64,000 nt of DNA from Gemmatimonadaceae bacterium. Its GTDB lineage: Bacteria; Gemmatimonadota; Gemmatimonadetes; Gemmatimonadales; Gemmatimonadaceae. Below are positions 1,665-64,000 of this stretch, in pieces. The notes under the pieces were generated by a model. The model saw only the letters and a list, made by a program, of their open reading frames with translations, had not been told where the DNA came from and ran no database searches. Each line of letters starts with the position of its first letter. Position 1 is the stretch's first letter. The DNA is taken from contig JBGAJQ010000023.1 in assembly GCA_044224875.1 (NCBI GenBank), forward strand, positions 1,060 through 65,059, given 5' to 3'. The translations under genes and the position numbers were made by a program.

Positions 1665-2044
1665 GGTGCGCTCCCTTGCTCGACGCGACTGGCGTCATTT
1701 GCGTTGTTCGCCCGTTCGCGGGCGAGTCGGACGGTCGTGTGGAACACGCCGGCATGGCCATCGAAGCGGCGAGACCTGCGATTCACGCCAGCGACCACTC
1801 GGGAGGGTGTGATCGCTCGGGCGAACCCTCGCGTCACTTCGACCATTCGACGACGGCGATCTTCAGTCGTTAGGTTCGCCACCGACCGTTCATCTGCCAT
1901 TGAGGTTGGCGCCCTGGAACGATGGAAGCGGACGACCGACGACGTCTGTAGGCGCGCGGCTTCGTCAGCTGACATGAGGGTTGCAGCTGAAGGGTGCGCA
2001 GGAGCGCCTCGCCGCCCATCGGTCCCACGTCCGCCATGGAACAC
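1661..2044 (-). CDS. possible small Arg-rich hypothetical protein (start uncertain)
   Basis: Its TGA stop overlaps the ATG of the downstream gene 1326..1664 as ATGA, an arrangement typical of translational coupling. Third-position GC is only moderate and no family is recognised. Internal Met codons could be the true start. Confidence 0.3.
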   Translation of the reverse strand: MFHGGRGTDGRRGAPAHPSAATLMSADEAARLQTSSVVRFHRSRAPTSMADERSVANLTTEDRRRRMVEVTRGFARAITPSRVVAGVNRRSRRFDGHAGVFHTTVRLARERANNANDASRVEQGSAP

Positions 2045-2178
2045 TCCCTGGCGCTACGCCTACAATGATGCCCGGTCGAAGGCTCCAACCGCCGATTCGT
2101 CCGTCCACCGGCGTCGCCCCTACCCCACCCCTCCACCCCTAGCCATCTTCATGTTCCGGCGAGTACGTCGCCGCCGAC

Positions 2179-3801
2179 TTGCCGATGCCCGCCATGCCTG
2201 AAATGTTCGTGTCCAGAAGCCTAAGTCGCACAATCACTTCCGCACTTTGTCGCGTGGCGCTCGTGCTGCTGGTCCTCGCGCCCCTTGCCGCCTCGGCGCA
2301 GGCAAAGCCGCGCCGGCCACCGGCTAAGGCTCCCGCAAAAGCAGCCAAGACGTCTGCGGCCGACTCCGCAAAGAAGGTCGCCGAGCCCGTGTCGCCAGCG
2401 CCCGAGCCGGCACCGCCGATGGCCACCGTCACCGGCGTGGTGATCGACAGTGTCCATGCCACCTTCCTGCGCGGCGCGTCGGTGTCGCTGGAAGGCACCA
2501 CGATGATGCGCCTCACCAACGAGCAGGGACGATTCCAGATCGACTCCATCCCGCCGGGTACGTACCAGGTCCGGGTGGACCACGAACTCCTGGACTCGTT
2601 AGGTCTGCAGATGCTGAGCGCGCCGCTCACACTCGCCGACAAGGAGAGCAAGGAAGTCTCCCTGGCTGTCCCGTCAGGCGAAACCTTGGTGACCCTGTCG
2701 TGCCCGTCGGCGCGACGGGCCTTGGGACCGTCGGCGATCATTGGCCGCTTGCTGGACGCTGACACCGACACTCCCGTGGACAGCGCCCGCGTGTCGTTCG
2801 CCTGGTCCGAGCTCTCGCTGCAGTCGCTCCGACGCGTGCCCAAAGTGCGCGACGCGCAGACCGGCAAGGACGGCGTCTTTCGTATCTGTGGGCTTCCCAG
2901 CGAACTGGAAGGCGGCACCCTGCAGGCGTCCAAGAGCGGCGTGCTGACCTCCGAGGTCCGTGTGAACATCCAGTCACAGGCGCTGGTGATTCAGGGGCTC
3001 CGCATTGGAAACACGAGCACGGTAACGAAGGCAGAGTCGGACAGCGCCGCCAAGCGAGCCCGTGAAGCAACCACCGGGCCGACGTTCAGCGCCGTGACGG
3101 TTCAACGCGGCAACGCCGAACTCACGGGACGCGTCCTGAATGCCAACGGCAATCCAGTGGTCGGTGCCCGCGTGGACGTCGTGGGCACGCCAGGTGCAAC
3201 ACTCACCCGTGCCAACGGTGAGTTTGCCCTCTCCGGGCTGCCATCCGGCACGCAGTCACTCGTCGTCCGCCAGCTGGGCTACGAACCGGTCGAGCAGGCG
3301 ATCGAGCTGTCGACGCGAGCCCCCGCCAAGGTCACGGTGGTCATGACAAAGCCGGCGCAGGTCCTGGCCCCCGTCGTCGTGACGGCGGAAGCTGAGGCTG
3401 GGCTGGACCGCGTCGGCTTCTCCCAGCGAAAGAAGTCCACCGGCGGCACCTTCATCACGGGCGACGACGTCATGAAGCGGGCACCCAACATGCTCTCGGA
3501 CGTCTTCCGCACGGTGCCTGGCCTCCGCGTTGTACCCGTCGGAAACGACTACCAGATCGAGAGTTCGCGCAACGTCATCGGCGGATGCGTGAAGTACTGG
3601 GTAGACGGCGCTCCGTGGGAGGCCCTGTATCCCGGCGACGTCGACCGGCTCTATCCACCCCAGGAAATCGCCGGCATCGAGGTTTACCAGGGTGGATCCA
3701 ACGTGCCGGCGCAATTCCAGATGGCAGGACAAAGCTCCTGCGCGGCCGTTGTCATCTGGTCGCGGACCCGAACGGAGCGAATGCCTAACAGAAAGCGTTA
3801 G
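2179..3801 (+). CDS. CarboxypepD_reg-like repeat protein with C-terminal TonB-dependent-receptor plug-like domain
   Basis: 540-aa ORF with a signal peptide (ALVLLVLAPLAASAQA). It has repeated TGVV.D....L.GA.V.L......T...G.F.....P.G.Y motifs typical of carboxypeptidase regulatory-like domains. The C-terminal region (FITGDDVMKRAPNMLSDVFRTVPGLRV) resembles a TonB plug. The listed start is TTG; ATG alternatives are at 2185, 2194 and 2203. Confidence 0.7.
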   Translation: MPMPAMPEMFVSRSLSRTITSALCRVALVLLVLAPLAASAQAKPRRPPAKAPAKAAKTSAADSAKKVAEPVSPAPEPAPPMATVTGVVIDSVHATFLRGASVSLEGTTMMRLTNEQGRFQIDSIPPGTYQVRVDHELLDSLGLQMLSAPLTLADKESKEVSLAVPSGETLVTLSCPSARRALGPSAIIGRLLDADTDTPVDSARVSFAWSELSLQSLRRVPKVRDAQTGKDGVFRICGLPSELEGGTLQASKSGVLTSEVRVNIQSQALVIQGLRIGNTSTVTKAESDSAAKRAREATTGPTFSAVTVQRGNAELTGRVLNANGNPVVGARVDVVGTPGATLTRANGEFALSGLPSGTQSLVVRQLGYEPVEQAIELSTRAPAKVTVVMTKPAQVLAPVVVTAEAEAGLDRVGFSQRKKSTGGTFITGDDVMKRAPNMLSDVFRTVPGLRVVPVGNDYQIESSRNVIGGCVKYWVDGAPWEALYPGDVDRLYPPQEIAGIEVYQGGSNVPAQFQMAGQSSCAAVVIWSRTRTERMPNRKR

Positions 3802-3803
3802 GC
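3783..3803. repeat. inverted pair of the GTTAGG-core motif (GCCTAAC-N7-GTTAGGC) forming a 7-bp stem hairpin over the stop codon
   Basis: Read directly: GCCTAAC at 3783-3789, loop AGAAAGC, GTTAGGC at 3797-3803. The TAG stop of the 2179..3801 gene is 3799-3801, inside the right arm. The pair lies between convergent genes. Confidence 0.8.
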
Positions 3804-3808
3804 TCGAC

Positions 3809-5312: not shown

Positions 5313-8000
5313 TCATTCGCTGCGCAGCACGCGCGCTGGGTCGGTCCGCGCCGCCTGTCGGGCTGGGAGAAGACTCGCAGTGACCGCCGCCAGCAGCAGA
5401 ATTCCCGCCACACCGGCGAAGATTGCTGGGTCACGCGGTGACGTCTCGAAGAGCAGCGTGGCCATGAACGGGGTGCTCACGAAGGCGAGCACGAGGCCGG
5501 TGATGACACCCACGCTCGTCGTCCGCACGCCGTGGCCAACTACGTCCTTCAGGACGTGTAGTCGCCGGGCACCTAACGCCATGCGCACCCCAATCTCGCG
5601 GCGTCGTTGGGTCACGTCGTATGCTACCACACTGTAGGTCCCGACAATCGCCACGACGAACGCCAGCAGACCGAAGATGCTGAACATGGTAGCCCCGAGT
5701 CGCCACGTTCGGAGTTCCGGCTCCATGACCTCATTCATGGTGCGGACGTCGGTGTAGGGCAGCGCCGAAGACATCTCGGCGAGCACGCGTCGAATGGGCG
5801 CCACAGCGGCTTCCGGACTACCAGCCACTCGCACGAACATCACGCGCATGTCGGGTGCCCATTGCGCGAGGGGCAAGAAGTACTGGGGTTCCGGAGGCTG
5901 GCTGATCGTCGTGACACGCGCGTTGGCCACGACTCCAACGATCGTCGAACAAGGCGCCGTATCTGCCGAGATGCGAAAGCACCTGCCTAACGCATCCTGG
6001 TTTGGCCAGACGGCGCGAGCCATGGCATCGTTGATGATCACAACCGGGGTGCTTCCCTTGACGTCGGCCTCGGTAAACGCACGGCCACGCAGGATACGTG
6101 TCCCCGCCGTCGCGAAGTAGTCTGGAGCGACGCCATTGCTGTAGGGCCCGCCGCCCTTGAGCGGCGGCAGCTTACCGCTCTCCGGCAAGTAGATGTCATC
6201 CTGCCACTGCGATTCAAACGGCGTCGTCACACTCTGGCTTGCGCTGGTCACTCCCGGCAATGCGCGCACGCGTTCAACGGCCGTCCGCCAGCTCTCCTCG
6301 TAGGCCTCCGTTGTCTTGGAGATCACACTGAGCTCGGGGCGGGCAACGAGCAGGTGTTCCGTTGTCATGCCCAGGTCCAGCGTCGTCGCACGACGGAATG
6401 ACATGGCAAAGAGCCCAGCCCCAACGAGCAAGGACACGGAAAGGGCCGCCTGCGTGATGATGAGCGTGGACCGCAGGCGCGATCGCCGTCCCCCACCCTC
6501 CCTCGCCCCAGCCTTGAGCGACTCGGTGAGATTGGCGCGAGTCGAGGTGAGAGCCGGTGCAAGGCCCGCCAGCACGCCTGTCACGGCGATCACGGCAGCG
6601 GTAAACAAGGCGATCCTCCCGTCGACGGGTGCGCCCTCCCACGCCATGTCTCGCAGCAGGGTGGAACGAAGCGCCAGAGATCCCCAATACGCGATCAGAA
6701 GCGCCGCCACGCCACCAAGTGCCGACAGGGTCGTCGACTCGGCAAGCAGCTGCAGGATCAACCGACGACGCGCGACACCCAGTGCCAGTCGGACGGCAAG
6801 CTCGCGACGCCGGCGGGTCGCGCGGGCCAGTAGCAGATTGGCCACGTTGGCGCATGCAATGAGCAACACGATGCCCGACACTGCCGACAGCCACAACGCG
6901 ACCTTGGCTTGTGTCGAACTCTCCGGGCCACGCGATTGGATCATCGAGCCGGCGATGACGCTGACCGTGGAGTCGCCCTTTTTCACGCTGCGCCCGAACT
7001 GTTGATGGGCAACGGTCGCGGCGCCGCTGGCACTCGCGGCACTCACGCCCGGCCGGCGATGGGCCACCATCTCCAGCCACCGCATGTCATTTGTGGTGCG
7101 CCACTTGGGGCTGGCTTGCGTCGGCGCCGCCACTGCGAACGGCACAAACACGTCGGCAGCCAGGTTGCGGGGCCCCGTGAAGCCTCGTGGGGTCACGCCC
7201 ACCACCACATAGGAGATCATGTTCAGTTCCAGCGACTTGCCTAACGCGGCCTGCGCACTCCCAAACTCCCGGTCGGCGAAGCCACCAGAGATCACCGCCG
7301 TGTTCACGGCGGGCTGGCTCCAATCGTCCGGCGTGAAGTACCGTCCGGCAATCGGCTGCACGCCAAGCATCGAGAAGAGGTTCGGCGTCACCATCATCCC
7401 TTCTACTCTCCGCGCTTCTGCACCGCGGCCTAGCGAGGCGGCATTACGCCACCAGGCCGCCACGTCGTCGAAGACATCGTGCCGCGCGCGAAGATTCTCA
7501 AATGCCGGGTACGAAGCGCTCCGATACGTCACGAGGCCAAATTCCGGCGTCTGCCTTTGGAAGTAGATGAGCGACAGCCGACCGTCGTCCTTCACGTGGG
7601 GAGCGGGCTGCAGCAGTAGTCGATCCACAACGCCAAACATTGTCGCGTTCGCGCCAATCCCAAGTGCGAACGTCAGCGCGACCATCGCCGTGAAGCCTGG
7701 CTCGCGAAAGAGCCCACGCACTGCCTGCCACAGGTCGGTGCCCACGTCTCGCCAGCGCTCGATGCGTACCTCTCGGCTCACACGATCGCGGTCGATGGCA
7801 CCAAGCGAGGCGCGTACCCGTTCGACATCGCCAAACCGACGCCTGGCTTCCAGACGCGCGGCAGTTGGCTCAAGGCCGGACGCGATCAACTCCCTCGTCG
7901 TGGCCTCCAAGTGAAACGCAATCTCGTCATCCACTTCGCGCTCGACGGCGGGACGCCGTGTGGCGAGTCGAAAGAGACGCTGAAATCGGGAGGAGCTCAT
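5313..8000 (-). CDS. ADOP-family (duplicated MacB/FtsX-like) ABC permease without adjacent ATPase
   Basis: The listed ORF is 5313..8276, but its first 92 codons overlap padR. The ATG at 8000 lies 9 nt downstream of the padR stop and gives MSSSRFQRLFRLATRRPAVEREVDDEIAFHLE, the typical ADOP N-terminus. Two FtsX-like halves are present, each with a large periplasmic loop, giving 896 aa. Confidence 0.85.
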   Translation of the reverse strand: MSSSRFQRLFRLATRRPAVEREVDDEIAFHLEATTRELIASGLEPTAARLEARRRFGDVERVRASLGAIDRDRVSREVRIERWRDVGTDLWQAVRGLFREPGFTAMVALTFALGIGANATMFGVVDRLLLQPAPHVKDDGRLSLIYFQRQTPEFGLVTYRSASYPAFENLRARHDVFDDVAAWWRNAASLGRGAEARRVEGMMVTPNLFSMLGVQPIAGRYFTPDDWSQPAVNTAVISGGFADREFGSAQAALGKSLELNMISYVVVGVTPRGFTGPRNLAADVFVPFAVAAPTQASPKWRTTNDMRWLEMVAHRRPGVSAASASGAATVAHQQFGRSVKKGDSTVSVIAGSMIQSRGPESSTQAKVALWLSAVSGIVLLIACANVANLLLARATRRRRELAVRLALGVARRRLILQLLAESTTLSALGGVAALLIAYWGSLALRSTLLRDMAWEGAPVDGRIALFTAAVIAVTGVLAGLAPALTSTRANLTESLKAGAREGGGRRSRLRSTLIITQAALSVSLLVGAGLFAMSFRRATTLDLGMTTEHLLVARPELSVISKTTEAYEESWRTAVERVRALPGVTSASQSVTTPFESQWQDDIYLPESGKLPPLKGGGPYSNGVAPDYFATAGTRILRGRAFTEADVKGSTPVVIINDAMARAVWPNQDALGRCFRISADTAPCSTIVGVVANARVTTISQPPEPQYFLPLAQWAPDMRVMFVRVAGSPEAAVAPIRRVLAEMSSALPYTDVRTMNEVMEPELRTWRLGATMFSIFGLLAFVVAIVGTYSVVAYDVTQRRREIGVRMALGARRLHVLKDVVGHGVRTTSVGVITGLVLAFVSTPFMATLLFETSPRDPAIFAGVAGILLLAAVTASLLPARQAARTDPARVLRSE

Positions 8001-9955: not shown

Positions 9956-10131
9956 GTGGTAAGGTGGTGCGGGTGCGCCGGCAGCTCATACCGCTGAAGC
10001 CGGCACTACGAGGCATAACGTGTCTCCGAACGTTGCGCGGTCCCGGGTTCTTTGGAAAGGGTTTTCCCAGCGACTCGGCTCTTTCGGCCAAGCCGTTTCG
10101 GCCATACGTTCGGCCGTCCCCTAACGGATGG

Positions 10132-10839
10132 ATGCGCACGGTGAAGAAGGCATATTCGCTCCTGTTTTCCGGAGCTGTGTTGGCGGTCCTTGCGGCGCCA
10201 ATGGAACGCGGTTCATCGCTGGAGGCACAGGCCGCAGGTGGTGAGTGGCACTCACTCTTTGATGGTAAGTCGCTGGATGGTTGGCGTGGCTACCAGATGT
10301 TCAGGGCACCTGTGGGTTGGGAGGCCTCGAACGGCGTGTTGAGCAAGCGCTTTCCCACCGAGGACCTCATCAGCGACGGCGTGTACGGCGACTTTGAGCT
10401 GGAACTCGAGTGGCGCATCGCGAAGGGCGGCAATGCCGGGATCTTCTACCGAGGCACCGAGCGCTACAACCACGTTTACTGGAGCGCCCCCGAATATCAG
10501 CTGCTCGACGATGCGTCGGCTTCCGACGCGACTGACCGCCTAACGTCGGCCGGGGCCGCGTACGCGGTCTATCCGTCCCCTGCAGGAAACGTGAAGCCGG
10601 CCGGTGAATGGAACCTGACGCGGATCGTCTGCCGCGGGGCGCATGTCGAGCACTGGCTGAATGGAAAGAAGTTGCTCGAATACGAGCTGTGGAGCCCCGA
10701 CTGGAAGGCTAAGGTCAAGGCCAGCAAGTTCAACGAATTCACCGAGTACGGAATGGCCAAGGTGGGACACATCGCCTTCCAAGGTGACCATGACGGTGAG
10801 CTGGCGTTCCGAAACATCCGCATTCGCAACTTGAAGTAG
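10132..10839 (+). CDS. DUF1080 (3-keto-disaccharide hydrolase-like, concanavalin-type) domain protein, secreted
   Basis: WHSLFDGKSLDGWRGY...GDFELELEWRIAKGGNAGIFYR...GHIAFQGDHDGELAFRNIRI is the DUF1080 pattern. ATG at 10132 precedes a signal peptide; the part of the listed ORF 5' of this ATG (9964-10131) looks non-coding. Confidence 0.8.
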   Translation: MRTVKKAYSLLFSGAVLAVLAAPMERGSSLEAQAAGGEWHSLFDGKSLDGWRGYQMFRAPVGWEASNGVLSKRFPTEDLISDGVYGDFELELEWRIAKGGNAGIFYRGTERYNHVYWSAPEYQLLDDASASDATDRLTSAGAAYAVYPSPAGNVKPAGEWNLTRIVCRGAHVEHWLNGKKLLEYELWSPDWKAKVKASKFNEFTEYGMAKVGHIAFQGDHDGELAFRNIRIRNLK

Positions 10840-12231: not shown

Positions 12232-13491
12232 ATGGCTGATCCTATCTCCCGACGCGACTTCGTCTCCGAGGCCTCGTTCGCCGCCGCTGCATTCACCATT
12301 GTCCCGCGTCACGTGTTAGGCAGGGGATACCGCGCCCCATCCGACACCCTCAACGTGGCTTGCATTGGTGTAGGCGGCATGGGATTCAATGACGTGAAGG
12401 GCATGTCGATCGGGTACCGGGACTTCCGCGAGTTGTTAGAGAAGGAGAAGACCATAGACGCCGTCACGGTGACGACGCCCGACCACGTGCACGCCGCGGC
12501 CGCAATGATGGCGCTTAGGGCTGGGAAGCACGTGTATTGCCAGAAGCCGCTTGCGCGGACCGTGGGTGAGGTACGCGCGCTCAAGGCCGAAGCGGCGCGG
12601 CGGCCGAAGCAGGCCACACAGATGGGCAATCAGGGGCACGCCGGCGACGGCGTGCGCCAGATGCGGGAGTGGATTGAAGCTGGCGCGATCGGAACGGTTC
12701 AACGGGTGGAGTTATGGACTAACCGACCGATTTGGCCGCAGGGAATCAATCGGCCGACCGAAGCACATAACGTTCCGCCAACGCTCGACTGGAATCTCTG
12801 GTTAGGCCCCGCCAGCGAACGGCCCTACCATCCGGGTTACGCGCCATTCAACTGGCGTGGGTGGTGGGATTTTGGCACGGGCGCCATGGGCGACATGGCC
12901 TGCCACATCATGGACGCGTCGTTCTGGATATTGGGACTGAAGTACCCCGCGCGCGTGATTCCGGAATCGTCACCGCTGTTCCCGGAAACCGCGCCAAAGT
13001 CATCGCGCATCACGTACGAGTTCCCCGCACGCGGCGATCGCCCGGCCGTGACCGTGGTCTGGCGTGACGGCGGGATCTATCCGCCACGGCCCGAGGAGTA
13101 TGGAAGGGAACGTGCGTGGGTCCCAGACAACGAAGGGGGCCAACTCTGGATTGGTGACAAGGGCTCGATGATTGCCGGCACGTACGGTGCCGACCCAAAG
13201 CTGTGCGATGAAACAAAGCACGCCGCCCTCATCGCCAATCCGCCCGCGGTGAAGTACCCGAGGACGGAGGGTGTCTACAAGGAGTGGATCGCGGCGATCA
13301 AGAGTGGTGGGCAACCCGGGTCGAACTTCTCATCTCACGCTGGCCCACTGACGGAGATGATCACGTTAGGCAATCTGGCAGTGCGGGCCGGGCGAACGGT
13401 GGAGTTGGATCCGGAGACTGGAGCGATCAAGACCTCGGGCATTCCGAGCGAGTGGATCACCCCCGTGTATCGCTCCGGTTGGAGCCTCTAA
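12232..13491 (+). CDS. Tat-exported Gfo/Idh/MocA family oxidoreductase
   Basis: Twin-arginine leader (ISRRDFVSEASFAAAAF), GxGxxG-like CIGVGGMG, and TPDHVHAAAAMMALRAGKHVYCQKPL. The C-terminal alpha/beta domain is typical of the periplasmic glycoside-oxidoreductase-like subgroup. Confidence 0.85.
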   Translation: MADPISRRDFVSEASFAAAAFTIVPRHVLGRGYRAPSDTLNVACIGVGGMGFNDVKGMSIGYRDFRELLEKEKTIDAVTVTTPDHVHAAAAMMALRAGKHVYCQKPLARTVGEVRALKAEAARRPKQATQMGNQGHAGDGVRQMREWIEAGAIGTVQRVELWTNRPIWPQGINRPTEAHNVPPTLDWNLWLGPASERPYHPGYAPFNWRGWWDFGTGAMGDMACHIMDASFWILGLKYPARVIPESSPLFPETAPKSSRITYEFPARGDRPAVTVVWRDGGIYPPRPEEYGRERAWVPDNEGGQLWIGDKGSMIAGTYGADPKLCDETKHAALIANPPAVKYPRTEGVYKEWIAAIKSGGQPGSNFSSHAGPLTEMITLGNLAVRAGRTVELDPETGAIKTSGIPSEWITPVYRSGWSL

Positions 13492-22700: not shown

Positions 22701-22701
22701 G

Positions 22702-27883: not shown

Positions 27884-27953
27884 CGTTAGGCTCGGCGAGA
27901 GTGAAGAGTCCCGGTGGATGGCGGCTGGTCAGCCGCATGTCCGTCGACTACGA

Positions 27954-36257: not shown

Positions 36258-36445
36258 ACGCGAGTGGATGTCGGCGTCGCCTGGCAGCTTGGTCGACGCG
36301 CGACAGAACTTGTCGAGTAGCCTTTGTTGTCCGTTAGGTGCAACGGGCTCCGAGCGTCCACGTTGACAGCCGGGGCCGCCGCGTCCAAGCTACCTCCACT
36401 CCACGCTCAACGCACCCCGCGCAGTCCGTGGGGTACCTGGGTGCC

Positions 36446-46035: not shown

Positions 46036-46869
46036 TTACGGTACGGTCAAGCGTCGGTGGGCGACGTGGTAGCCGCTCAACGTGCCGATGGCGGCGCCCG
46101 CGAACACGTCACTGGCCCAGTGGGCATTCTCATACATCCGGGAGAAACCCACAGCCGTCGCCGCGCCATAGAGACCTAACGCAATCCACCGCGAGTGTCG
46201 TGGATGTGCCTTCGACAGCTCCAATGCCAACACGCTAGCCCCGGCAAATGCAGCGCTCGTGTGGCCCGACGGAAAGGACGCCCGATCGTTGTTGAAGAAC
46301 CCACGACCCGGGTAGAACATGTCCGGATCTTCCGGCATGCTCCGCGGTCGCGCGCGCCCGACCGTTCCCTTGATCGCTGCCGTGATCACTCCGCTCGTCA
46401 CCACGGCGCGCGTGACGTCGACGCCTAGGTGCTTCGTGAAATCGTTGTGGAATGCCCACCCCGTGACGGCCAACGTCCCGCCGGCGGCCAATGGCAGATA
46501 CCCACCGATTGAGCTGGTGAGCAACGACACGTGCTGCATCCCGGGTCCCGACGACGCGCGAAACTCGCGGACTTCGTCGGCGATGCTCCCGTCGAACAGT
46601 GAGATCGTGGCGGCCCCGGCAAGGATTCCAACGGCGGCACTCGTCGTTCGATGCGACAGGAAGAATCCGCTGAATGAGGAGCGCGTGGCGGAGTCCAAGG
46701 GCGCCTGCGCGTGCAGGCAGGGCGTACCGAGCGCGAAGCACAACGCCGCCCTCACACAATTCTGGACCGACAGATTCACGCTCCGGCTCCTTGTGGAAGG
46801 CGTACGTTCGGCACACCTACGCATCCATCGATCGGCCATGACGATGCCGATCAAGGAACACACAGTCAA
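46036..46869 (-). CDS. PAP2 superfamily phosphatase (tandem paralogue)
   Basis: SFPSGHTSAAFA and NAHWASDVFAGAAIG motifs. The start is uncertain; an internal ATG lies at 46824. Confidence 0.8.
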   Translation of the reverse strand: MTVCSLIGIVMADRWMRRCAERTPSTRSRSVNLSVQNCVRAALCFALGTPCLHAQAPLDSATRSSFSGFFLSHRTTSAAVGILAGAATISLFDGSIADEVREFRASSGPGMQHVSLLTSSIGGYLPLAAGGTLAVTGWAFHNDFTKHLGVDVTRAVVTSGVITAAIKGTVGRARPRSMPEDPDMFYPGRGFFNNDRASFPSGHTSAAFAGASVLALELSKAHPRHSRWIALGLYGAATAVGFSRMYENAHWASDVFAGAAIGTLSGYHVAHRRLTVP

Positions 46870-51134: not shown

Positions 51135-52550
51135 ATGCCACGCAATCACACGACCGACGTCCTGAGCGCACCCCGTCGCCTCATCCCCCGCGATGGCGCC
51201 GCGTTGCCTAACGGCACCGTGCTCTCGCGCGACGAGGCCCAGTCCCTCGTCGAACGCATCACCAAGCTCTCCAAGGCAGACGCGATCGAGGTGCAAATCG
51301 GTGGCGGTTACTCCGCCAACGTCCGGTTTGCCGACAACCAGATGTCCACCGCCGGAGGGGTCACCGACTTCCAAATCGGCGTGCAAAGCTCCTTCGGACC
51401 CAAGCATGCCGTCGTCACCACCAACGAGACGACCGACGAAGCCTTGCGCGCGGCGGTGGAAAAGTCAGAGCGACTCGCCAAACTCGCACCCGACGATCCC
51501 GAGGCCATGCCTCAACTGGGACCCCAGCAGTACACGCCGGTGGATGCCTACTTCTCCTCCGTGGCCGACATGGACGCGGCCGAACGCGCCAAGATCGCCC
51601 TCACCGCGCTCGAGCCCGCGCGCGGCGCCGGCGACCTCACGGCCGCTGGCTTCCTCGTCACCAACGTGCAAGCTGGCGCCCTTGGCAACAGCAAGGGACT
51701 CTTCGCCTACCATCGCAGCACCAACGCCAACTACACCCTCACCGTCCGCACCAAGGACGGCACTGGCTCCGGCTGGGCCGGAGCCGAGCATAACGACGCG
51801 AGTAAGGTGGACTTCCGCGGCGTGAGCGAGCGCGCCATCGAAAAGGCGCGCCTCTCCCGCAATCCGGTCGCCATCGAACCGGGACGCTACACCGTCATCA
51901 TGGAGCCACAGGCCGTGGGTGACCTGTGCCAACTCGTCGGCTTCTACGCCGACGCTAGATCCACCGACGAAGGACGCTCCCCATTCGTGAAGCAGGGTGG
52001 TGGCACAAAGATCGGCGAGAAGATCATGGACGCGCGTCTTAGCATCTACGCCGATCCGCGCGATCCCATGGTGCTCGCCCAGCCATTCGACGGCGATGGG
52101 CTCCCGTTAGGCCGCCAGGTGTTTATCGAGAATGGTGTCCTCAAGACACTCTACTACTCCCGATTCTGGGCGCAGAAGAAAGGCGTTGAGCCCACCGGCG
52201 CACCGACCTCCTTCCTGATGTCGGGCGGCGACACCAGCGTCGAGGACATGATCAAGTCCACCGAACGCGGCATACTCGTCACGCGACTCTGGTACCTCCG
52301 TGAGGTCGATCCCAGGACGATTCTCTACACCGGGCTCACCCGCGACGGCACCTTCCTCATCGAGAACGGAAAGATCAGCAAGTCGGTGAAGAACTTCCGT
52401 TTCAATGACTCGCCGCTGTTCATGCTCAACAACATCGAAGCGCTTGGCCGGCCAGTCCGACTCGCCGGCACCGAGGCAGGGGGCGCGGTAGTTGTCCCAG
52501 CCATCAAGGCCAAGGACTTCAACTTCACGAGCCTGAGCGACGCTGTTTAA
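51135..52550 (+). CDS. pmbA: PmbA/TldE-like partner protein (no signal peptide)
   Basis: TldD/PmbA-family layout 12 nt downstream of the tldD-like gene. It lacks the HExxxH motif, as expected for the PmbA-type subunit. Confidence 0.8.
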   Translation: MPRNHTTDVLSAPRRLIPRDGAALPNGTVLSRDEAQSLVERITKLSKADAIEVQIGGGYSANVRFADNQMSTAGGVTDFQIGVQSSFGPKHAVVTTNETTDEALRAAVEKSERLAKLAPDDPEAMPQLGPQQYTPVDAYFSSVADMDAAERAKIALTALEPARGAGDLTAAGFLVTNVQAGALGNSKGLFAYHRSTNANYTLTVRTKDGTGSGWAGAEHNDASKVDFRGVSERAIEKARLSRNPVAIEPGRYTVIMEPQAVGDLCQLVGFYADARSTDEGRSPFVKQGGGTKIGEKIMDARLSIYADPRDPMVLAQPFDGDGLPLGRQVFIENGVLKTLYYSRFWAQKKGVEPTGAPTSFLMSGGDTSVEDMIKSTERGILVTRLWYLREVDPRTILYTGLTRDGTFLIENGKISKSVKNFRFNDSPLFMLNNIEALGRPVRLAGTEAGGAVVVPAIKAKDFNFTSLSDAV

Positions 52551-54064: not shown

Positions 54065-56941
54065 CTAGAACGGCAGCGAGATCAGGAGGTTGTTCCGTAC
54101 ATGCGGGAGTTCGTCCACACGATAGTTTACGCGAAGCCCAAGGCGCATCGTGGAACGGAGCTGAATCGGCGACATGTCGGTCGTTACCTCGCCACCGAAT
54201 GATCGGAGGAGCAGGTGAACCGAATTGTCGCGCCGGGCCGCATATCCGTAATCGTAGTACGCCGCGCCCTGCACGCGCCGGAAATAGGCAAAGGGACCAA
54301 CGGCAAAGTCCGGGTAGAATAGCGGGAACGCATAGGTCACGCCCACGCGCTCAAAGCGCTCCGCCGTGAAGGCATCGTAGCCGCGCGACACGTCATGCAG
54401 CGACGAGAACAAGTAGTTGACGCGCCGTTGTTCCTCACGTTGTGCCTCCAGCACGACCCCGTGATGCCTGACGAGCCCCGGTAGGAAGAGTGCGCCCTGA
54501 ACCGAGAGTTGGTGTCCTTGATAGTCGCCTTCGAGCGGGGTGTGTCGGTACACCAGTGACCCCGACGCGCCACGCGGCAGGATGTCGCGGGTGGCGCTCT
54601 CCACGAACCTGCTTCCGGCCACGGTATACGTCAGTGGCAGGAACGACCCGTTGTTGTTCGAGAACCGACTGTTGAAGGTCTTGCCATCGACCCACGTGTA
54701 CCCAACCGCTGCGGATGCCGAGAGGCGCTCCGTCGTCAACCCGCGCACTCGCACATACGGGAGCCGCACGCCCACCTGCGCCGATCGCTCGGACCAGTGA
54801 TACCGAACACGTGTCGAGTCGAGGTCGGCCACTGAGGCCCGGGTCCCATAGCGCAACGCACCATCGAAGATCGGCACATGTGCCGCGTAGCTCGCTCCCA
54901 GCTCGAACGACCCTGTGTGCTCTGCCAGGTTCGCGATGGCACCCACCGAAGTTGCGAATGTGTTGAGCACATTTCGCGATTGGAGCACCAACCCCTGGTT
55001 GTGCCCATCCCCACTCGGCGCAAGGCTCAACGAATGGAACTTGAAGATGCGTTCCAATCCATCGTACGGAACAGCCTTCCACTCCGTCGGCTCCAACGGT
55101 TGCTGGGCTGGCGCGACCGCTTCCTGGTCCAACAACGGCGCGTAATACGCCACATCCCGGCGGCGGACGGAGTCGACTGGACGGAAGGCGCCACTGTCGA
55201 TGCGCATTTCCGCGATGTCGTATCCGTCTTCACCGTAGTCTTGAAACAGCAGGTGCGCACCATCGGCGGACACGGTTGCCCCGCGTGCGGCATATCGACG
55301 GCTCGTGACCTGGAATCGCGTCCCGGTCTTGAGGTTGGTAGCTTCGATATTGTCGATGCCGGACGCCGGCGATCCATAGTACACCCAGTCGCCGCGAAGC
55401 ACGGGCCGCACGATCGCGTCCAGTCGAAACGGAATCACTGTATCCGGGGGTGCGCCGTCGAGCGGCACACGCACCAGAGCATTCCCTCGTGCATGGTGCC
55501 GATCCAGCGCCACCACGTAGATGCTCTCGCCGTCAGGCGACCACGCGGGCGTTGCGAGGAAGTGATCGTCCGAATTCGGCAGCGACTGCACGGTCGCCCC
55601 CGATTCACTGTCGATGATGTCGACAAAGGTGCGCCCCCCTTCCGTGAACCGGACCGCCGCCACCCTTCGAGCGTCGGGAGACAACACCGCTGCGAAGTGA
55701 CGCGCGCCGCTCGTCAACCGGTGCACCTGACGAGTGCGAAGGTCCAGCATCCGCAGCGTCAGGTAACCCCGCTGGACGAACCGAGGGTCCACCTCCAGCT
55801 CCGACCACACCACCTTGTCGCCAACTACGTCGAACTGCTGTTCGCCGCGGGTGGGGAACTGCCGAACGAGCGTCTCCTGCTTCCCGTCCTTCAATCGCAC
55901 CAACGACGGCACGGCAGACATGTCCCAGTACTCGGCCACGATGCTCCCGTCGCCAGCATACTGCGGCAAGCGCCACCCGTGGTAGTCGGCATTGGCTGGA
56001 GATCGCGGCGTCGCCGCCGTGGTATCGAGCCCCGCGACCTGTGCGCGCCACAGCAGGTCGAGTTCGTGGATCGCGTCACGGTGGATCTGCGTCAGGGACT
56101 TCCCCGTTGCCTTCTTGAGCCCGTGCGAGATTGCCAGTGGCGGAATCGGCCAACGGGACGCGCTGGCGATCGCCTTCCGCCACGCATCGGCGCCATATAC
56201 ACGCTTCACATGCGTCGTCAGCACATACCCGAGTTGATACCAGTCGGGATAAAACGTGCGGTAGGAGCCATTCCATGCCGCGTAGTAGGGATATCGGTCA
56301 CCGTTCAGCCGCAACGTCCGGATCCGGTTGCCGAATGACGGCTGCCGTCCCCTGCCCGCATTGCTGAGCGCCGTCTCGGTTCCTACGGCGTCCCCCTCCC
56401 AAAACCAGGCGGGAAAATAGAGCGACCCCGCGACAAACGCCGTCGTCCCCTCACCAAACATCCGACTCACGAGGCCCACCCAGCCATCGCGCACTGCATC
56501 CTCCTGTACGATGTGTCGGCCCTCGTGCACCGCCAACAGACTGAACCAGTCCACTGGGCCAAACTCGTCCAACCCACCGGGCGGAATCGCATACCACTCC
56601 GATCGGCGCGGAGCCCAGGACACAAAGGCGTTGGAGATCGCCGACTGGTTGTTGAGGACGACGGGGATGCGATCCGGCGATCGATCAAGTGTCTTGCCTA
56701 ACGGCAAGTACGCGCGCTCCAGCAGCGCGGCAGCACGTTGCGCCTCCGCCGCCATCGAGTCCGGGTAGATCACGTCAAAGTGCGGCGTTACCAGCTTCCA
56801 CCAGCGCAGCGAGGAAGGAAACTGCGCCCCCCCGATCCGGACCCAGAGTGGCGCTTGTGCGCGCGCGCTCGTGGCCATGCCGACGAGCAGCACGACCGCC
56901 TGCAGCACTCGTCTAGTAGGAAACCACCCTCCCACCCTCAC
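54065..56941 (-). CDS. large exported protein: N-terminal HExxH region, TolB/PD40-like beta-propeller, C-terminal beta-barrel-like domain
   Basis: Signal peptide (VVLLVGMATSARAQA) and LLAVHEGRHIVQ (HExxH). PD40-like repeats are present (AAVLSPDARRVAAV, TPAWSPDGESIYVV, ATVSADGAHLLFQ). The C-terminal ~350 aa have alternating beta-strand-like sequence ending in LLISLPF, with a terminal aromatic residue as in outer-membrane barrels. Confidence 0.7.
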   Translation of the reverse strand: MRVGGWFPTRRVLQAVVLLVGMATSARAQAPLWVRIGGAQFPSSLRWWKLVTPHFDVIYPDSMAAEAQRAAALLERAYLPLGKTLDRSPDRIPVVLNNQSAISNAFVSWAPRRSEWYAIPPGGLDEFGPVDWFSLLAVHEGRHIVQEDAVRDGWVGLVSRMFGEGTTAFVAGSLYFPAWFWEGDAVGTETALSNAGRGRQPSFGNRIRTLRLNGDRYPYYAAWNGSYRTFYPDWYQLGYVLTTHVKRVYGADAWRKAIASASRWPIPPLAISHGLKKATGKSLTQIHRDAIHELDLLWRAQVAGLDTTAATPRSPANADYHGWRLPQYAGDGSIVAEYWDMSAVPSLVRLKDGKQETLVRQFPTRGEQQFDVVGDKVVWSELEVDPRFVQRGYLTLRMLDLRTRQVHRLTSGARHFAAVLSPDARRVAAVRFTEGGRTFVDIIDSESGATVQSLPNSDDHFLATPAWSPDGESIYVVALDRHHARGNALVRVPLDGAPPDTVIPFRLDAIVRPVLRGDWVYYGSPASGIDNIEATNLKTGTRFQVTSRRYAARGATVSADGAHLLFQDYGEDGYDIAEMRIDSGAFRPVDSVRRRDVAYYAPLLDQEAVAPAQQPLEPTEWKAVPYDGLERIFKFHSLSLAPSGDGHNQGLVLQSRNVLNTFATSVGAIANLAEHTGSFELGASYAAHVPIFDGALRYGTRASVADLDSTRVRYHWSERSAQVGVRLPYVRVRGLTTERLSASAAVGYTWVDGKTFNSRFSNNNGSFLPLTYTVAGSRFVESATRDILPRGASGSLVYRHTPLEGDYQGHQLSVQGALFLPGLVRHHGVVLEAQREEQRRVNYLFSSLHDVSRGYDAFTAERFERVGVTYAFPLFYPDFAVGPFAYFRRVQGAAYYDYGYAARRDNSVHLLLRSFGGEVTTDMSPIQLRSTMRLGLRVNYRVDELPHVRNNLLISLPF

Positions 56942-58777: not shown

Positions 58778-61003
58778 ATGCGCATCGCCGCAGCCCTCGC
58801 CCTGTGCTCCGGAACGTTAGGCGCCCAGGTCGCAACGCGGCCAATGACCTTTCTGGATTCGCAATTGATGCGAAGCGTTCAAGGCCTTGACCTGAGCGCC
58901 GATGGCCGCTGGGCGCTGTACTCCCTCTCGACGCCCGATTGGAATGAGGCGAAGCGCTACACCGACGTATACCTCGTCTCCGCGGATCGCGGGGTAGCGT
59001 CCACACGCCAACTCACGTTTACAAAGGACAAGAACGAAAACAGTCCCAAGTGGGCGAAGGACGGCACGTGGTTCGTCTTCTCCTCGAATCGCGACACACC
59101 GAACGGCGGCGCGAGCATGCAGCTATATCGCATGCGTCCAGACGGCGGCGAGGCACAAAAGCTGACCGACGTAAAGGACGGTGTTGGTGCCTACGCGTTC
59201 TCCCCTGACGGTCGCTGGCTGGTATATGCGGCTGGAAAGCCGGACGAGCAGCAGCTGTGGTCCATCGACGCGTCGACCGCTAATCCGACCTCGCCCACAC
59301 AACTCACCAAACACGCAACGCCCATCGGTTCTTGGCAGTTCTCCAAGGACGGGAAACAGCTCTTCTTCTTGTCTCCGGACTCCGTCGACAAGGACAACAA
59401 GGATCGCATCGAAAAGAAGTTCGATGTCAGAGTCCGAAACCAGGATCTCCCGCTGAATCATCTCTGGGTTGTGTCCTTGGCGGATCGATCAGAGAAGCGC
59501 CTCACGTCAGGCGCTGCGTACAGTGTGGAGAGTGTTACGCTCTCCGACGATGGCGCGTGGGCTGGCTTCCGCGCCTTGCCCAACAACCGCTACGAGCGAA
59601 CAATCACGGAATCCAGTGACTACGGCGACTTGTACCTCCTCAACGTCGCCAGCGGCAACGTTGAACGGCTGACAAACAACGAGGTCATTTCCGAGAGCAA
59701 CCTGAGTTTCGCACCCGACGGCAAGACGATTGCCTTCTCGGCCTCCGACGACTTCGTGTACTTCCGAGCCAACAAGGTGTACACGCGAGCGATCACCGCG
59801 CCTGGCACCTCATGGACCAAACTCGGCGCCTCCTACGACGGCGATGTGAACATCGGCTGGTGGTCCGATGATGCCAAGACGATTTTTTACATAGACGGCG
59901 TTCGTGCGACCAACCAGCTGATGGCTCTCGATCTGGAGCGGAACACCGTACGGCAAATGACCGACGTCAAGGCTTCACTCTTCGCATCCAAGGATGACGA
60001 GAGTGGCAAGATCCTCCTTAACTACTCAGACCCGAAAACACCACCCACCCCGTTTCTGGTGGCCTCGGTAGCCGACGTGTCCAACCGCGCCAACTGGCGA
60101 CAGCTCGCGGAACCCAATCCCCAGGTTGCCCAGCTCGCGTTAGGCGACGAGGAGGAGGTCTCGTGGAAGTCGAAAGACGGTCGTACGGTCGGCGGCATTC
60201 TCATCAAGCCGGTCGGCTACCAGCCTGGCAAACGATACCCGTTGATCGTCGCCATCCATGGTGGCCCTCAGAGTGCCGACGTCCTCAGCTTCAACGGTGG
60301 TTACGGCGCTCAAGTCTACGCCGGTGACGGCTACGCCGTGCTGCTTCCCAACTACCGTGGCTCCACCAACTACGGCGAGAAGCACAAGTGGGAAATCGTC
60401 GGTAACTACTTCCAGAAGGGGTACGAAGACATCATGACGGGCGTCGACAAGCTCATCGCCGATGGGCTCGTCGACAGCTCGAAAATGGGTGCGCTGGGCT
60501 GGAGCGCGGGCGGCCACTGGTCCAACTGGATCCTCACGCACACGGATCGTTTCAAGGCGATCTCTACCGGAGCCGGTACGACCAACTGGATCTCGATGTA
60601 CGCGCAGAGCGACATGCAGTACGTGCGCATGCATTACCTCGGCGGCAAGCTGCCATACGATGACTTCGAGGCCTACTGGAAGCAGTCACCCATTCGCTAC
60701 ATCAAGAACGCCAAGACGCCAACCATGATTCACGTCGTCGATGGCGACCCACGCGTTCCTCGCCCGCAAAGCGAGGAGCTCCATATGGCCCTGAAGAAGC
60801 TCGGCGTGCCGACAGAATTCTTCGTGTACCCCGGCGCGTCCCACGGCATTCCCGATCCTCGAAACCAACTGGTGAAGTCTGTCGCCGAGAAGGCCTGGAT
60901 GGACCACTGGATCCTCGGCAAGGGCGGCTTCCAATGGAAGGATGTCTTGAAGACGCTCGAGGAGAAGTCCGCCGCCACGGCGACGTCCTCCGACTCACGC
61001 TAG
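58778..61003 (+). CDS. S9 family serine peptidase (prolyl oligopeptidase/dipeptidyl peptidase type) with N-terminal beta-propeller
   Basis: GALGWSAGGHW (GxSxGG). PD40-like repeats are present (FSPDGRWLVYAA, FAPDGKTIAFSA). The C-terminal VDGDPRVP and GASHGI carry the catalytic Asp and His. The listed ORF starts at GTG 58721; ATG 58778 gives a signal peptide. Confidence 0.9.
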   Translation: MRIAAALALCSGTLGAQVATRPMTFLDSQLMRSVQGLDLSADGRWALYSLSTPDWNEAKRYTDVYLVSADRGVASTRQLTFTKDKNENSPKWAKDGTWFVFSSNRDTPNGGASMQLYRMRPDGGEAQKLTDVKDGVGAYAFSPDGRWLVYAAGKPDEQQLWSIDASTANPTSPTQLTKHATPIGSWQFSKDGKQLFFLSPDSVDKDNKDRIEKKFDVRVRNQDLPLNHLWVVSLADRSEKRLTSGAAYSVESVTLSDDGAWAGFRALPNNRYERTITESSDYGDLYLLNVASGNVERLTNNEVISESNLSFAPDGKTIAFSASDDFVYFRANKVYTRAITAPGTSWTKLGASYDGDVNIGWWSDDAKTIFYIDGVRATNQLMALDLERNTVRQMTDVKASLFASKDDESGKILLNYSDPKTPPTPFLVASVADVSNRANWRQLAEPNPQVAQLALGDEEEVSWKSKDGRTVGGILIKPVGYQPGKRYPLIVAIHGGPQSADVLSFNGGYGAQVYAGDGYAVLLPNYRGSTNYGEKHKWEIVGNYFQKGYEDIMTGVDKLIADGLVDSSKMGALGWSAGGHWSNWILTHTDRFKAISTGAGTTNWISMYAQSDMQYVRMHYLGGKLPYDDFEAYWKQSPIRYIKNAKTPTMIHVVDGDPRVPRPQSEELHMALKKLGVPTEFFVYPGASHGIPDPRNQLVKSVAEKAWMDHWILGKGGFQWKDVLKTLEEKSAATATSSDSR

Positions 61004-61089
61004 TCGCTCGTCTGCGGTGTGCCAGGTAGCGAGTCGCTTGGAAGCTGACTCACTATCTGGCGACCGTTAGGCAGGACCCACATCACCCG

Positions 61090-62880: not shown

Positions 62881-62926
62881 GCGCACGAGGCGGTCCCACA
62901 CGCCCCGTGCGACTCGGACGTCCTTG

Positions 62927-63295
62927 TCAGAATGGCGGTATCGTCAGCTCAATCACGTCGCCGCGACTGATCATGATCTCATCCGAGACCGTCTGGCCGC
63001 GGGCACCGATCGGATGGACGACGAACTTCATGGAGTACAGTCCTCGATCGAGGTACTTCGGCAGCGTGAACTTCGACGTCGTGTTCCCTGTGGCGATCCC
63101 AAGCCGATACGACGCGCCGTCGCGAATCGCGTACACCACCGCGTCCAGCCACGCCTGATTGCGCACCTCCACCGTCGTGGCGGCGCTGTCCTTGGCGGCT
63201 ACCACTATCGTATCCGCGCCAACGCTCGTCGCGCGCGCGGGCGACGCAACCGCCAGTACGGCCAGCGTACCAAGCATTGTAAGAGCGGTTCGCAT
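62927..63295 (-). CDS. small secreted hypothetical protein
   Basis: ATG at 63295 is preceded by AAGGAGG. Signal peptide MRTALTMLGTLAVLAVASPARA. Beta-rich sequence with no family recognised. Confidence 0.55.
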   Translation of the reverse strand: MRTALTMLGTLAVLAVASPARATSVGADTIVVAAKDSAATTVEVRNQAWLDAVVYAIRDGASYRLGIATGNTTSKFTLPKYLDRGLYSMKFVVHPIGARGQTVSDEIMISRGDVIELTIPPF

Positions 63296-63472
63296 CCTTG
63301 CCTCCTTGCTGAGCACCCTTCCCCGTGAAGGGTTTGTGTCCGCTGCTACCCTTGGCCTGAGCAAAGGTTCGCGCATCGGTCATCGTTGGGTCGACATGAC
63401 CCGCCGTGTCTGATCCACCGTGCCCGCTGCCCGACCGCATGCCCAGCCGCCGCGCCGTGTCTGATCACGCCG

Positions 63473-64000
63473 TCAGTTCGAACTCTTGGAATCGGACGGC
63501 GCAGCCTCGAACCACTGCTGAGAGATCTCCAAGTACGCGCGGACGCCTTCCGAATCCCTTGCTTGCACTGCCGCGCGAATGGCACGCAGGCTGGCCTCCA
63601 CGGCCTCGAGCGCGCGGGTGAGAGGAACCTGGTTTTCCTCCGCGATCGCTGTCCACACATCGGGTGAACTGCCAGCCAGCCGAGTCGCGTCGCGCCCCCC
63701 GGGGCCCAAGGCACTCCGATGCACGCCGGCCTCGCACAGGGCCGTCGCCAGCGCACAGGAGACGAACTGTGGCAAGTGGCTCGACCACGCCAGGAGATTG
63801 TCGTGTACCTGCGCGGACGTGAACTCGGGGACGGCGCCTAACGCGCTCCAGAAGGACGCTGCACGCGCGATCGCTGAACGGTCCGTCGCTTCGCCAGCGC
63901 AAAGGTACACGCGTGCCGCGGCAAACCTCCCCGCGCGCGATGCTGGCCAACCGCTCCGATGGTCACCCGCCAACGGATGTGCCCCGACAAACGTGCGCAT
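63473..64000 (-). CDS. tyrA: prephenate/arogenate dehydrogenase, C-terminal part (N-terminus beyond window)
   Basis: FVGAHPLAGDHRSG (HPMAG-type motif) and SHLPQFVSCALA...GGRDATRLAGSSPDVW match the TyrA dimerisation domain. The frame is open to base 64000. Confidence 0.75.
   Translation of the reverse strand: MRTFVGAHPLAGDHRSGWPASRAGRFAAARVYLCAGEATDRSAIARAASFWSALGAVPEFTSAQVHDNLLAWSSHLPQFVSCALATALCEAGVHRSALGPGGRDATRLAGSSPDVWTAIAEENQVPLTRALEAVEASLRAIRAAVQARDSEGVRAYLEISQQWFEAAPSDSKSSN

Follow-up and report, generated by a model that had tools for sequence, protein, structure and literature searches.

A hyper-abundant, strand-symmetric octamer in a lineage of uncultured soil Gemmatimonadaceae: a possible analogue of DNA uptake sequences

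Introduction

Identity words of known function are very few in bacterial genomes. They comprise the DNA uptake sequences (DUS) and uptake signal sequences (USS), which act in uptake through a dedicated receptor (ComP, with ComN/PpdA predicted), Chi, which acts in recombination, and the FtsK-orienting polar sequences (KOPS), which act in segregation. The highly iterated palindrome HIP1 is an unsolved case after decades. The present study concerns another such word, CGTTAGGC (reverse complement GCCTAACG), which is dispersed through a stretch of 64,000 nucleotides (the window) from a Gemmatimonadaceae bacterium (assembly GCA_044224875.1, contig JBGAJQ010000023.1, positions 1,060 to 65,059). Its range is a single lineage of uncultured soil Gemmatimonadaceae, in which it occurs about once per 1.5-3 kb on both strands. 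It was first noticed by eye, from the letters and open reading frames (ORFs) of the window, in what is called here the sequence-only reading. A full-text literature search did not find the word itself in any paper and, whatever its function, it adds to the known hyper-abundant genomic words an example from a phylum that had none on record.

A 2025 survey (bioRxiv 10.1101/2025.10.24.684340) gives Neisseriaceae and Pasteurellaceae as the only families with known uptake-enhancing sequences. The DUS (e.g. GCCGTCTGAA, Neisseriaceae) and the USS (AAGTGCGGT, Pasteurellaceae), which run to hundreds or thousands of copies, are short, non-palindromic and present about once per kb on both strands, and in this they are like the word described here. 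Other shared properties are confinement to one clade with slight variants in sub-lineages, the use of few permissive reading frames, conservation at orthologous sites, enriched variants one substitution away and a composition that is atypical for the genome concerned (PMC3630211, PMC2397512, bioRxiv 10.1101/2025.10.24.684340). In density, dialects, frame bias and conservation, the published uptake words agree with the present one (PMC3630211; bioRxiv 10.1101/2025.10.24.684340).

The cyanobacterial HIP1 (GCGATCGC) is also an octamer in tens-fold excess, specific to its clade, conserved within and between ORFs and not accounted for by peptide or RNA, all of which holds for the present word. Chi (GCTGGTGG in E. 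coli, with equivalents in other lineages) shares with it a non-palindromic form, being a 5-8-mer, as well as over-representation, a mostly intragenic location and lineage specificity. The FtsK-orienting octamer GGGNAGGG of the KOPS and architecture imparting sequences (AIMS) is similarly over-represented and dispersed through genes.

Abundance of the word in the window

The window (63.3% GC) contains 39 copies of the core GTTAGG/CCTAAC, 20 on the plus and 19 on the minus strand, and in 23 of them the core is part of the full octamer CGTTAGGC/GCCTAACG (12 plus, 11 minus). The remaining cores are eight CGTTAGGT/G, seven DGTTAGGC and one AGTTAGGG. A recount matched the sequence-only reading exactly in all 39 positions, in the strand split and in the breakdown of flanks into 23, 8 and 7 copies, with the one AGTTAGGG to be added; the one-mismatch relatives that it had listed at 39230-39237, 32281-32288 and 40929-40936 are present. 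The excess over composition that it had claimed for the octamer was likewise found, with 23 copies against expectations of 2.5, 1.2, 0.75 and 1.05 under Markov models of order 0, 1, 2 and 3. Its estimate of about 23 copies for the hexamer rests on independent bases and understates the excess, as order 2 predicts 5.1 cores against the 39 observed. Under orders 2-3, CGTTAGGC is the top-ranked 8-mer of the window, and the next ranks are taken by its own overlapping shifts.

Scoring against higher-order Markov models and against shuffled genes had been proposed as a check. The word is top-ranked in both protein-preserving shuffles described below, and orders 5 and 6 predict 22.6 and 23.9 octamers. 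These orders reproduce the count because the 6- and 7-mers of the octamer hardly exist outside it, and the maximal-order fit was therefore judged uninformative as a refutation. The tetramer TTAG illustrates this confinement, with 64 occurrences in the window, of which 39 lie inside GTTAGG and 23 inside CGTTAGGC.

Reading frames and protein-preserving controls

The 46 genes of the window were called by codon-usage likelihood and then adjusted by synteny. They carry 19 octamers, compared with 1.3 +/- 1.1 after synonymous shuffling within each gene (maximum 6 in 300) and 4.9 +/- 1.7 (maximum 9) after a third-base shuffle that preserves dinucleotides. Among all 8-mers CGTTAGGC holds rank 1 in both shuffles, with z values of 16.5 (synonymous) and 7.8 (dinucleotide-preserving), and the possibility that its excess would disappear once codon usage and dinucleotides were controlled is thus not borne out.

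The cores of the window fall into 21 Leu-Gly, seven Pro-Asn, three Leu-Thr and three Val-Arg frames, with five intergenic. An earlier tally of 22, 6, 3 and 1 was close to this, but not identical, the gap arising at 1869, 14847 and 63837, where the ORF calls are uncertain. The shares of Leu-Gly dipeptides written as TTA-GGN that had been reported for the GFO oxidoreductase (3/4) and the S9 peptidase (2/7) both hold on recount. TTA makes up 42 of the 1792 Leu codons in the window genes; half of these TTA codons precede GGN, and every one of the 21 TTA-GGN pairs comes after NNG. It had also been suggested that TTA-GGC might simply be the generally preferred Leu-Gly codon pair regardless of the preceding base, which is not the case, the commonest pair being CTC-GGC, above TTA-GGC.

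Synonymous opportunities for the word are filled in 10/47 cases (21%) for the sense tripeptide [S/P/T/A]-L-G, written xCG-TTA-GGC, and in 3/11 (27%) for Pro-Asn on the opposite strand, written G-CCT-AAC-G. Occupancy is lower where a rare codon is required (CTA 3/27, AGG 2/44). Similar occupancy in unrelated frames on opposite strands indicates that the target is the DNA duplex and not mRNA or a codon pair, and the excess of copies on the sense strand arises because Leu-Gly is common and Pro-Asn rare. The word is therefore a DNA-level feature rather than an artefact of codon pairing or composition.

Distribution among relatives

The genome collection was scanned around the Dcp peptidase (at least 80 loci), and the metagenome collection with a lineage-specific protein of 759 amino acids (aa). 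The closest syntenic relative, L005 (GCA_046327745.1, 79% nucleotide identity), has eight octamers in 22 kb. Among the matches listed in the genome collection, only L010 (Gemmatimonadaceae SMAG_U6300) is enriched, with seven octamers and 10 cores in 5.9 kb; 11 other Gemmatimonadales loci and all of the Acidobacteriota, Proteobacteria and Bacteroidota loci listed have essentially none. The 15 closest metagenomic loci (50-58% aa identity, 63-74% GC) all carry the word at 0.3-0.9 cores/kb, and among the matches listed it is lacking from the metagenomic locus at 49% identity and from 64 more distant loci. The word is thus present in all 17 clade loci (15 metagenomic, L005 and L010) and absent from about 150 others.

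A pool of 209 kb of non-redundant clade DNA, consisting of the window and 13 other loci, contains 86 octamers against 2.6-3.7 expected (23-33-fold, Markov order 2-3), equivalent to 0.41 octamers and 0.65 cores per kb. The density in non-clade DNA (1.34 Mb from other Gemmatimonadales, Acidobacteriota and Proteobacteria with a GC content of at least 60%) is 0.0045 per kb, about 90 times lower. Confinement of the enrichment to the window, which the sequence-only reading had named as an outcome that would count against it, was not observed, as each of the 13 other loci carries the word. Since synteny between the clade loci and the window is only partial, the word is a property of the genomes and not of one region. 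An Acidobacteriaceae metagenome-assembled genome (MAG) contig (L065) has three CGTTAGGC in 22 kb (at 1831, 12115 and 12736; about 0.3-0.5 expected), probably by chance given that about 150 loci were examined.

Strand symmetry extends to the clade. The GC skew of the window is negative in 15 of 16 bins, with octamers split 12:11 and cores 20:19, and the pooled clade sites are oriented 68:69 relative to the local GC skew of each locus, so that a 75% orientation bias is rejected (P = 3e-10), local GC skew in short contigs being an imperfect proxy for the replichore. The earlier argument from strand symmetry against polar words of the Chi or KOPS type is thereby upheld. Pooled reading-frame counts for the clade are 60/30/17/5. 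Spacing is slightly more even than random, with a Greenwood statistic below expectation in 11 of 12 loci (combined p ~0.03), and word-free gaps of 4-8 kb have the same GC content as their surroundings, the DNA sampled including no mobile element.

Anatomy of the word

The form of the word was derived from 137 aligned clade sites, an alignment that by construction does not vary in the inner hexamer. At position -1, C stands in 117/137 and T in 14/137, and at position +7, C stands in 103/137 and T in 24/137, giving a consensus C-GTTAGG-C with T tolerated at both ends (YGTTAGGY) and CGTTATGC as a minor variant. The aligned sites hold no information beyond the eight bases, which bears out what had been seen by eye in the window; a longer repeat or mobile element was rejected on this ground and on the lack of any Rfam match.

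That the inner hexamer is strict was judged from the counts of neighbouring words. Three of the 24 single-substitution neighbours are clearly raised, namely CGTTAGGT (24 copies in the 209 kb of clade DNA, 0 in non-clade DNA), the end-position variant TGTTAGGC (12 copies) and CGTTATGC (14 copies, about tenfold over its non-clade density); CGTTAGGG is weakly enriched and no other neighbour is raised. Copies of CGTTATGC lie in the window at 8043, 10013, 11951, 42983 and 51788 and in clade loci at, for example, L087 478, L089 1249 and L101 1700. The copy at 51788 recurs at the orthologous position of three further species, and CGTTATGC may be accepted as a second form of the word. The related word CGTCAGGC was observed 36 times against 15-21 expected. 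No neighbour is clearly depleted, with power limited by the 209 kb and by several expectations near 1. The synonymous intermediates between the common Leu codons and TTA, CGTTGGGC and CGCTAGGC, are at expectation (16 against 14-15 for CGTTGGGC). Together with the enriched variants at the soft edges, this argues for protein recognition of the complete word, and together with the lack of a depleted neighbour it argues against context-dependent mutation or a conversion of near-cognate words resembling very short patch (VSP) repair. Within the clade, the sub-lineage L093-L097 favours CGTTAGGT (10/28 compared with 13/79 elsewhere), a weak dialect signal that could possibly represent an incipient dialect.

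Conservation and turnover of sites

Third codon positions are 54% identical between the window and L005, and ordinary 8-mers are unchanged in 15.7% of cases (10-22% by codon phase), as compared with 7/8 aligned octamers and 8/11 cores that are kept in place (P ~2e-5). The sites are thus conserved at synonymous positions of orthologues, a property that the sequence-only reading had put forward as a check. Retention is near-complete across clade pairs at 78-81% nucleotide identity (3/3, 4/4, 5/5, 2/2, 6/7) and declines towards background at 66-73%. Pooled retention is 40/84 against a background of 0.157, the pairs not being independent, and positional conservation is 3- to 5-fold over background.

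Gain and loss can be followed in the 759-aa protein, in which four species share one word at a given S-L-G tripeptide and two species share another, and further species retain the tripeptide with a different spelling. The conservation of S/A-L-G tripeptides with varying spelling shows that words are gained and lost synonymously at such peptide 'opportunities'. Within the species, none of 72 single nucleotide polymorphisms falls inside a word (0.3 expected). Three same-species contigs that were assembled independently (L001, L002, L003; 99.9% identical, from different SRR runs in Logan) end at 34625, inside the CGTTAGGC at 34619-34626, and a fourth spans this position. The shared end suggests a population variant that begins at the last base of the word, although it may be a coincidence. 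The other nine distinct contig ends are not near any word, and breakpoints at words were set aside as uninformative.

Possible function of the word

By analogy with the known uptake words, CGTTAGGC can be regarded, as a tentative but plausible reading, as a DUS-like self-recognition word with a sequence-specific protein as its reader, most likely a DNA-uptake-sequence analogue. A sequence-specific DNA-binding protein would read the complete 8-bp duplex in either orientation and would most probably belong to the DNA-uptake step of natural transformation. Fragments bearing the word would be preferentially taken up and then recombined, as with the DUS of Neisseriaceae and the USS of Pasteurellaceae. 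The uptake bias, with or without selection for the uptake of self DNA, would install the word at all positions that permit it, which in coding DNA would mainly be [S/P/T/A]-Leu-Gly as xCG-TTA-GGC, with Pro-Asn on the other strand, and would hold it at roughly one copy per 1.5-3 kb. An AT-rich core in genomes of 63-74% GC would make the word rare in foreign DNA and hence a good discriminator. Clade restriction, the enriched end variants CGTTAGGT and TGTTAGGC and the slightly even spacing add support to the analogy. The fuller proposal, that this is a DNA uptake sequence, the first from beyond the Proteobacteria, and that the lineage tags its genome with CGTTAGGC and preferentially takes up and recombines the tagged DNA, is possible but should be received with some doubt. 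The likeness to DUS and USS drawn in the sequence-only reading has survived in part: hyper-abundance and density, occurrence in both orientations and bias to a few permissive frames are all found, and clade restriction besides, but the inverted pair at a gene end lends it no support.

Several observations weigh against a role in uptake. About half of the uptake sequences in Neisseriaceae and Pasteurellaceae sit in terminators (bioRxiv 10.1101/2025.10.24.684340), as do most of their inverted repeats, whereas 82% of the present sites are intragenic, only 25/137 (18%) being intergenic where 13% of the DNA is non-coding, and there are essentially no inverted-repeat or terminator copies. The inverted pair that had been noted at a gene end (window 3783-3804) does exist, but it is the only one in 137 sites and is no canonical terminator; with a 7-bp stem, a 7-nt loop, no T tail and a z of -1.4 it is not exceptional, and the word was rejected as a terminator hairpin. 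The word is also shorter than DUS and USS (eight bases, six of them strict, as opposed to 9-12 nt), and it has neither the flanking AT tracts of the USS nor any other flanking consensus. The clade sample amounts to only about 0.2 Mb of contigs and includes no complete genome, and the literature search found no report of natural transformation or of an uptake sequence for Gemmatimonadota. Furthermore, every one of the sequence-level properties listed is shown by HIP1, which is not known to act in uptake (PMC5861425), and the evidence is roughly as compatible with a HIP1-like role as with uptake. The host, an uncultured soil lineage of Gemmatimonadota, also differs from those of DUS and USS. Genes for the type IV pilus, ComEA, ComEC and DprA are not found within the 64-kb window.

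A HIP1-like octamer, kept for a chromosome-level role such as that of an abundant nucleoid-associated or domain-organising protein and unrelated to uptake, is on balance unlikely but deserves serious attention. Its phenomenology as reported for HIP1 (PMC5861425) agrees with the present word in an excess of the same order (23-33-fold), conservation of orthologous sites inside and between ORFs, mostly intragenic sites and slightly even spacing, and the analysis of frame occupancy revealed no role at the peptide or RNA level. HIP1 is defined by a 15- to 300-fold excess with orthologous conservation, and comparable values are seen here (23-33-fold over Markov expectation, about 90-fold over non-clade DNA, 7/8 sites retained). 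However, HIP1 is palindromic, which suits dimeric binding or methylation, whereas CGTTAGGC and GCCTAACG differ; HIP1 also contains GATC/CGATCG methylation sites, and the present word is asymmetric and belongs to another phylum. A periodicity of 10-90 kb is reported for HIP1, and the clade loci show a mild local evenness. The analogy moreover yields no mechanism, because the function of HIP1 is itself unknown. Chi offers a different model, in which the word would switch a helicase-nuclease of RecBCD/AddAB type from degradation to RecA loading and be enriched in either orientation in self DNA. A non-palindromic, clade-specific, over-represented and mostly intragenic 8-mer would suit this, and about 0.2 sites/kb per orientation would give approximately the density of E. 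coli Chi from either direction of entry. Chi is, however, oriented with replication and G-rich, and the present word is strand-balanced (12:11 in the window, 68:69 pooled) with an AT-rich core; the enrichment reported for known Chi sequences is also far below 23-90-fold, and such a role appears improbable. The strong replichore polarity by which KOPS and AIMS are defined is likewise not seen, either across the bins of the window or in the pooled sites relative to GC skew.

There is similarly little probability that the word is linked to methylation or repair, as the target of a clade-specific methyltransferase, whether orphan or of restriction-modification (R-M) or bacteriophage exclusion (BREX) type, or of a sequence-biased mismatch repair, building up through biased correction or because a methyl-dependent function is selected. 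A lineage-specific enzyme would be expected to give a clade-specific distribution, there are adenines on both strands of the site, and a link between HIP1 and methyltransferases has been discussed. Nevertheless, the sites targeted by the R-M and BREX systems of a host are as a rule neutral or avoided rather than enriched 30-90-fold, no gene for a DNA methyltransferase or an R-M system lies in the 64-kb window, and the depleted near-cognate word that VSP-type conversion would leave is not seen, intermediates being at expectation, within the power afforded by 209 kb. The word might finally lack any function and simply reflect codon-pair preference, context-dependent mutation or composition. The agreement of order-5/6 Markov models with the observed count and the predominance of a single frame, Leu-Gly, would favour this, but the former reflects only the confinement of sub-words to the word. 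An artefact of this kind is ruled out by the top rank after both shuffles, the equal occupancy of an unrelated antisense frame, the 25 intergenic copies, the conservation in place above background and the absence of the word from relatives that match in GC content and codon style; the controls have effectively refuted it already, leaving it barely any credence.

If CGTTAGGC is an uptake word, it would provide a third, independent and sharply clade-delimited example alongside the two proteobacterial families, and sequence-selective, species-selective natural transformation would reach a dominant soil phylum that is among the most abundant and the least studied, with consequences for recombination and species cohesion in soil. 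Its receptor would then be unrelated or only distantly related to ComP. Alternatively, a second, non-palindromic HIP1-like system would aid the HIP1 problem by comparison. As a practical marker, the roughly 90-fold gap in density allows contigs of the lineage to be recognised in metagenome bins and should expose foreign DNA there.

Sites in the window

Sites are given with their strand in brackets and are CGTTAGGC unless another form is named. The leftmost, CGTTAGGT at 1868..1875 (+), is in frame GTT-AGG of an uncertain ORF (1203-2201), and a second CGTTAGGT at 2597..2604 (+) is read in sense as TCG-TTA-GGT in a CarboxypepD_reg/Plug gene (2179-3801). The end of this gene bears the sole inverted pair, of which the left arm is a TGTTAGGC at 3783..3790 (-; GCCTAACA on the plus strand), antisense as CCT-AAC, and the right arm at 3796..3803 (+) supplies the stop codon TAG (3799-3801). 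The MacB/FtsX permease gene (5313-8276) has three sense copies, a CGTTAGGT at 5571..5578 (-, GCG-TTA-GGT) and two copies read as GCG-TTA-GGC at 5985..5992 (-) and 7239..7246 (-), and gene 9964-10839 has two antisense copies, a CGTTAGGG at 10119..10126 (-, CCT-AAC) and one at 10538..10545 (-, CTA-ACG). Sense copies also mark the GFO oxidoreductase gene (12232-13491), with TGTTAGGC at 12314..12321 (+, GTG-TTA-GGC), GGTTAGGC at 12800..12807 (+, TGG-TTA-GGC) and the full word at 13364..13371 (+, ACG-TTA-GGC). The copy at 14846..14853 (-) lies in a 5' extension of ORF 13515-14933 and is probably intergenic, given that the gene is 380 aa long as called in the same-species contig L166.

Comparison with L005 is available for many of the following sites. 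A CGTTAGGG in the MarR gene at 19334..19341 (+, sense TCG-TTA-GGG) and a sense GGTTAGGC at 19870..19877 (-) in the DAO oxidoreductase gene (19720-21066) are not conserved there; a TGTTAGGC in the latter gene at 20218..20225 (-, sense CTG-TTA-GGC) is conserved, as are both sense copies of gene 21753-22700, at 22371..22378 (-) and 22605..22612 (-), each read as ACG-TTA-GGC. The word at 22700..22707 (+) provides the minus-strand TAA stop (22702-22704) of an amidohydrolase gene (22702-24420) and abuts the GTG start of gene 21753-22700, a stop/start arrangement that is conserved in L005 (15900-15907). The copy at 25248..25255 (-) is read in sense as TCG-TTA-GGC in the ammonium transporter gene (24822-26060); the segment around this gene (24578-26339) aligns with nothing in L005, which is otherwise syntenic, yet it carries this word. 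An intergenic copy at 27884..27891 (+), between the start of gene 26831-27883 and the stop of Dcp (27954-30239), is not conserved in L005. Four antisense copies are conserved there, namely 32194..32201 (+, CTA-ACG) and 32997..33004 (+, codons 2-3 in ATG-CCT-AAC) of a beta-lactamase-family gene (31723-33006), 34619..34626 (+, CCT-AAC) in gene 34515-35198 and 36120..36127 (+, CTA-ACG) in gene 35253-36257.

Further along, an intergenic CGTTAGGT at 36332..36339 (+) overlaps a putative GTG start at 36338, another CGTTAGGT at 40156..40163 (-) is read in sense as TCG-TTA-GGT in the pirin gene (39496-40419), and the core-only AGTTAGGG at 40977..40984 (+) is read in sense as GAG-TTA-GGG in the VIT1 gene (40556-41266). 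The gene for a Big_2 protein (42034-44076) has two TGTTAGGC copies, one antisense at 42168..42175 (-, CCT-AAC) and one sense at 43889..43896 (+, TTG-TTA-GGC), and the PAP2 gene (46036-46869) has a sense CGTTAGGT at 46174..46181 (-, GCG-TTA-GGT). Antisense CCT-AAC copies occur at 50049..50056 (-) in the TldD/PmbA gene (49483-51123) and at 51206..51213 (-) in gene 51135-52550, which also has a sense copy at 52105..52112 (+, CCG-TTA-GGC); the same sense codons are used at 56696..56703 (-) in gene 54065-56941. The S9 peptidase gene (58721-61003) carries sense copies at 58815..58822 (+, ACG-TTA-GGC) and 60138..60145 (+, GCG-TTA-GGC), the copy at 61065..61072 (+) is intergenic, between 61003 and 61090, and that at 63836..63843 (-) lies in frame GTT-AGG of an uncertain ORF (63465-63950).

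Gene context and other repeats

The genes of the window are ordinary chromosomal ones, including peptidases, transporters, GFO/IDH/MocA oxidoreductases, DapB, Amt and a duplicated MacB/FtsX permease, and their top protein matches are Gemmatimonadaceae MAGs. Two large and clearly coding genes, for proteins of 759 aa (46942-49221) and 958 aa (54065-56941), are without a Pfam match. The 759-aa protein is conserved and probably located in a membrane, with a conserved motif FYLWMSLGG, and its homologues in metagenomes from soil and sediment number in the hundreds. The same-species contig L166 differs by a 75-bp in-frame insertion of 25 codons (L166 4380-4454, relative to window 12412/12413) in the GFO/IDH/MocA oxidoreductase gene, giving a product of 444 aa compared with 419 aa in the window, and this represents a strain-level indel.

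A systematic screen of 168 loci revealed no other recurrent dispersed word above codon-level noise, and candidate 'dialect' words in L008, L009, L016, L050, L087 and L117 turned out to be local tandem or clustered repeats. Those unrelated to the word comprise a 17-nt unit with inverted copies (L008 5552-5600 and 11138-11190), tandem units of 26 nt (L016 4557-4800) and 70 nt (L009 4827-4975), an array of the hexamer CAGGGG (L050 14933-15890) and a 13-nt unit at a contig end (L087 14498-14560). The non-clade metagenomic contig L117 (6011-6970 and 8768-8826) contains three intergenic clusters of ACGGAATA(CGCAAT)ACGGAATA in both orientations, which resemble arrays of regulator binding sites.

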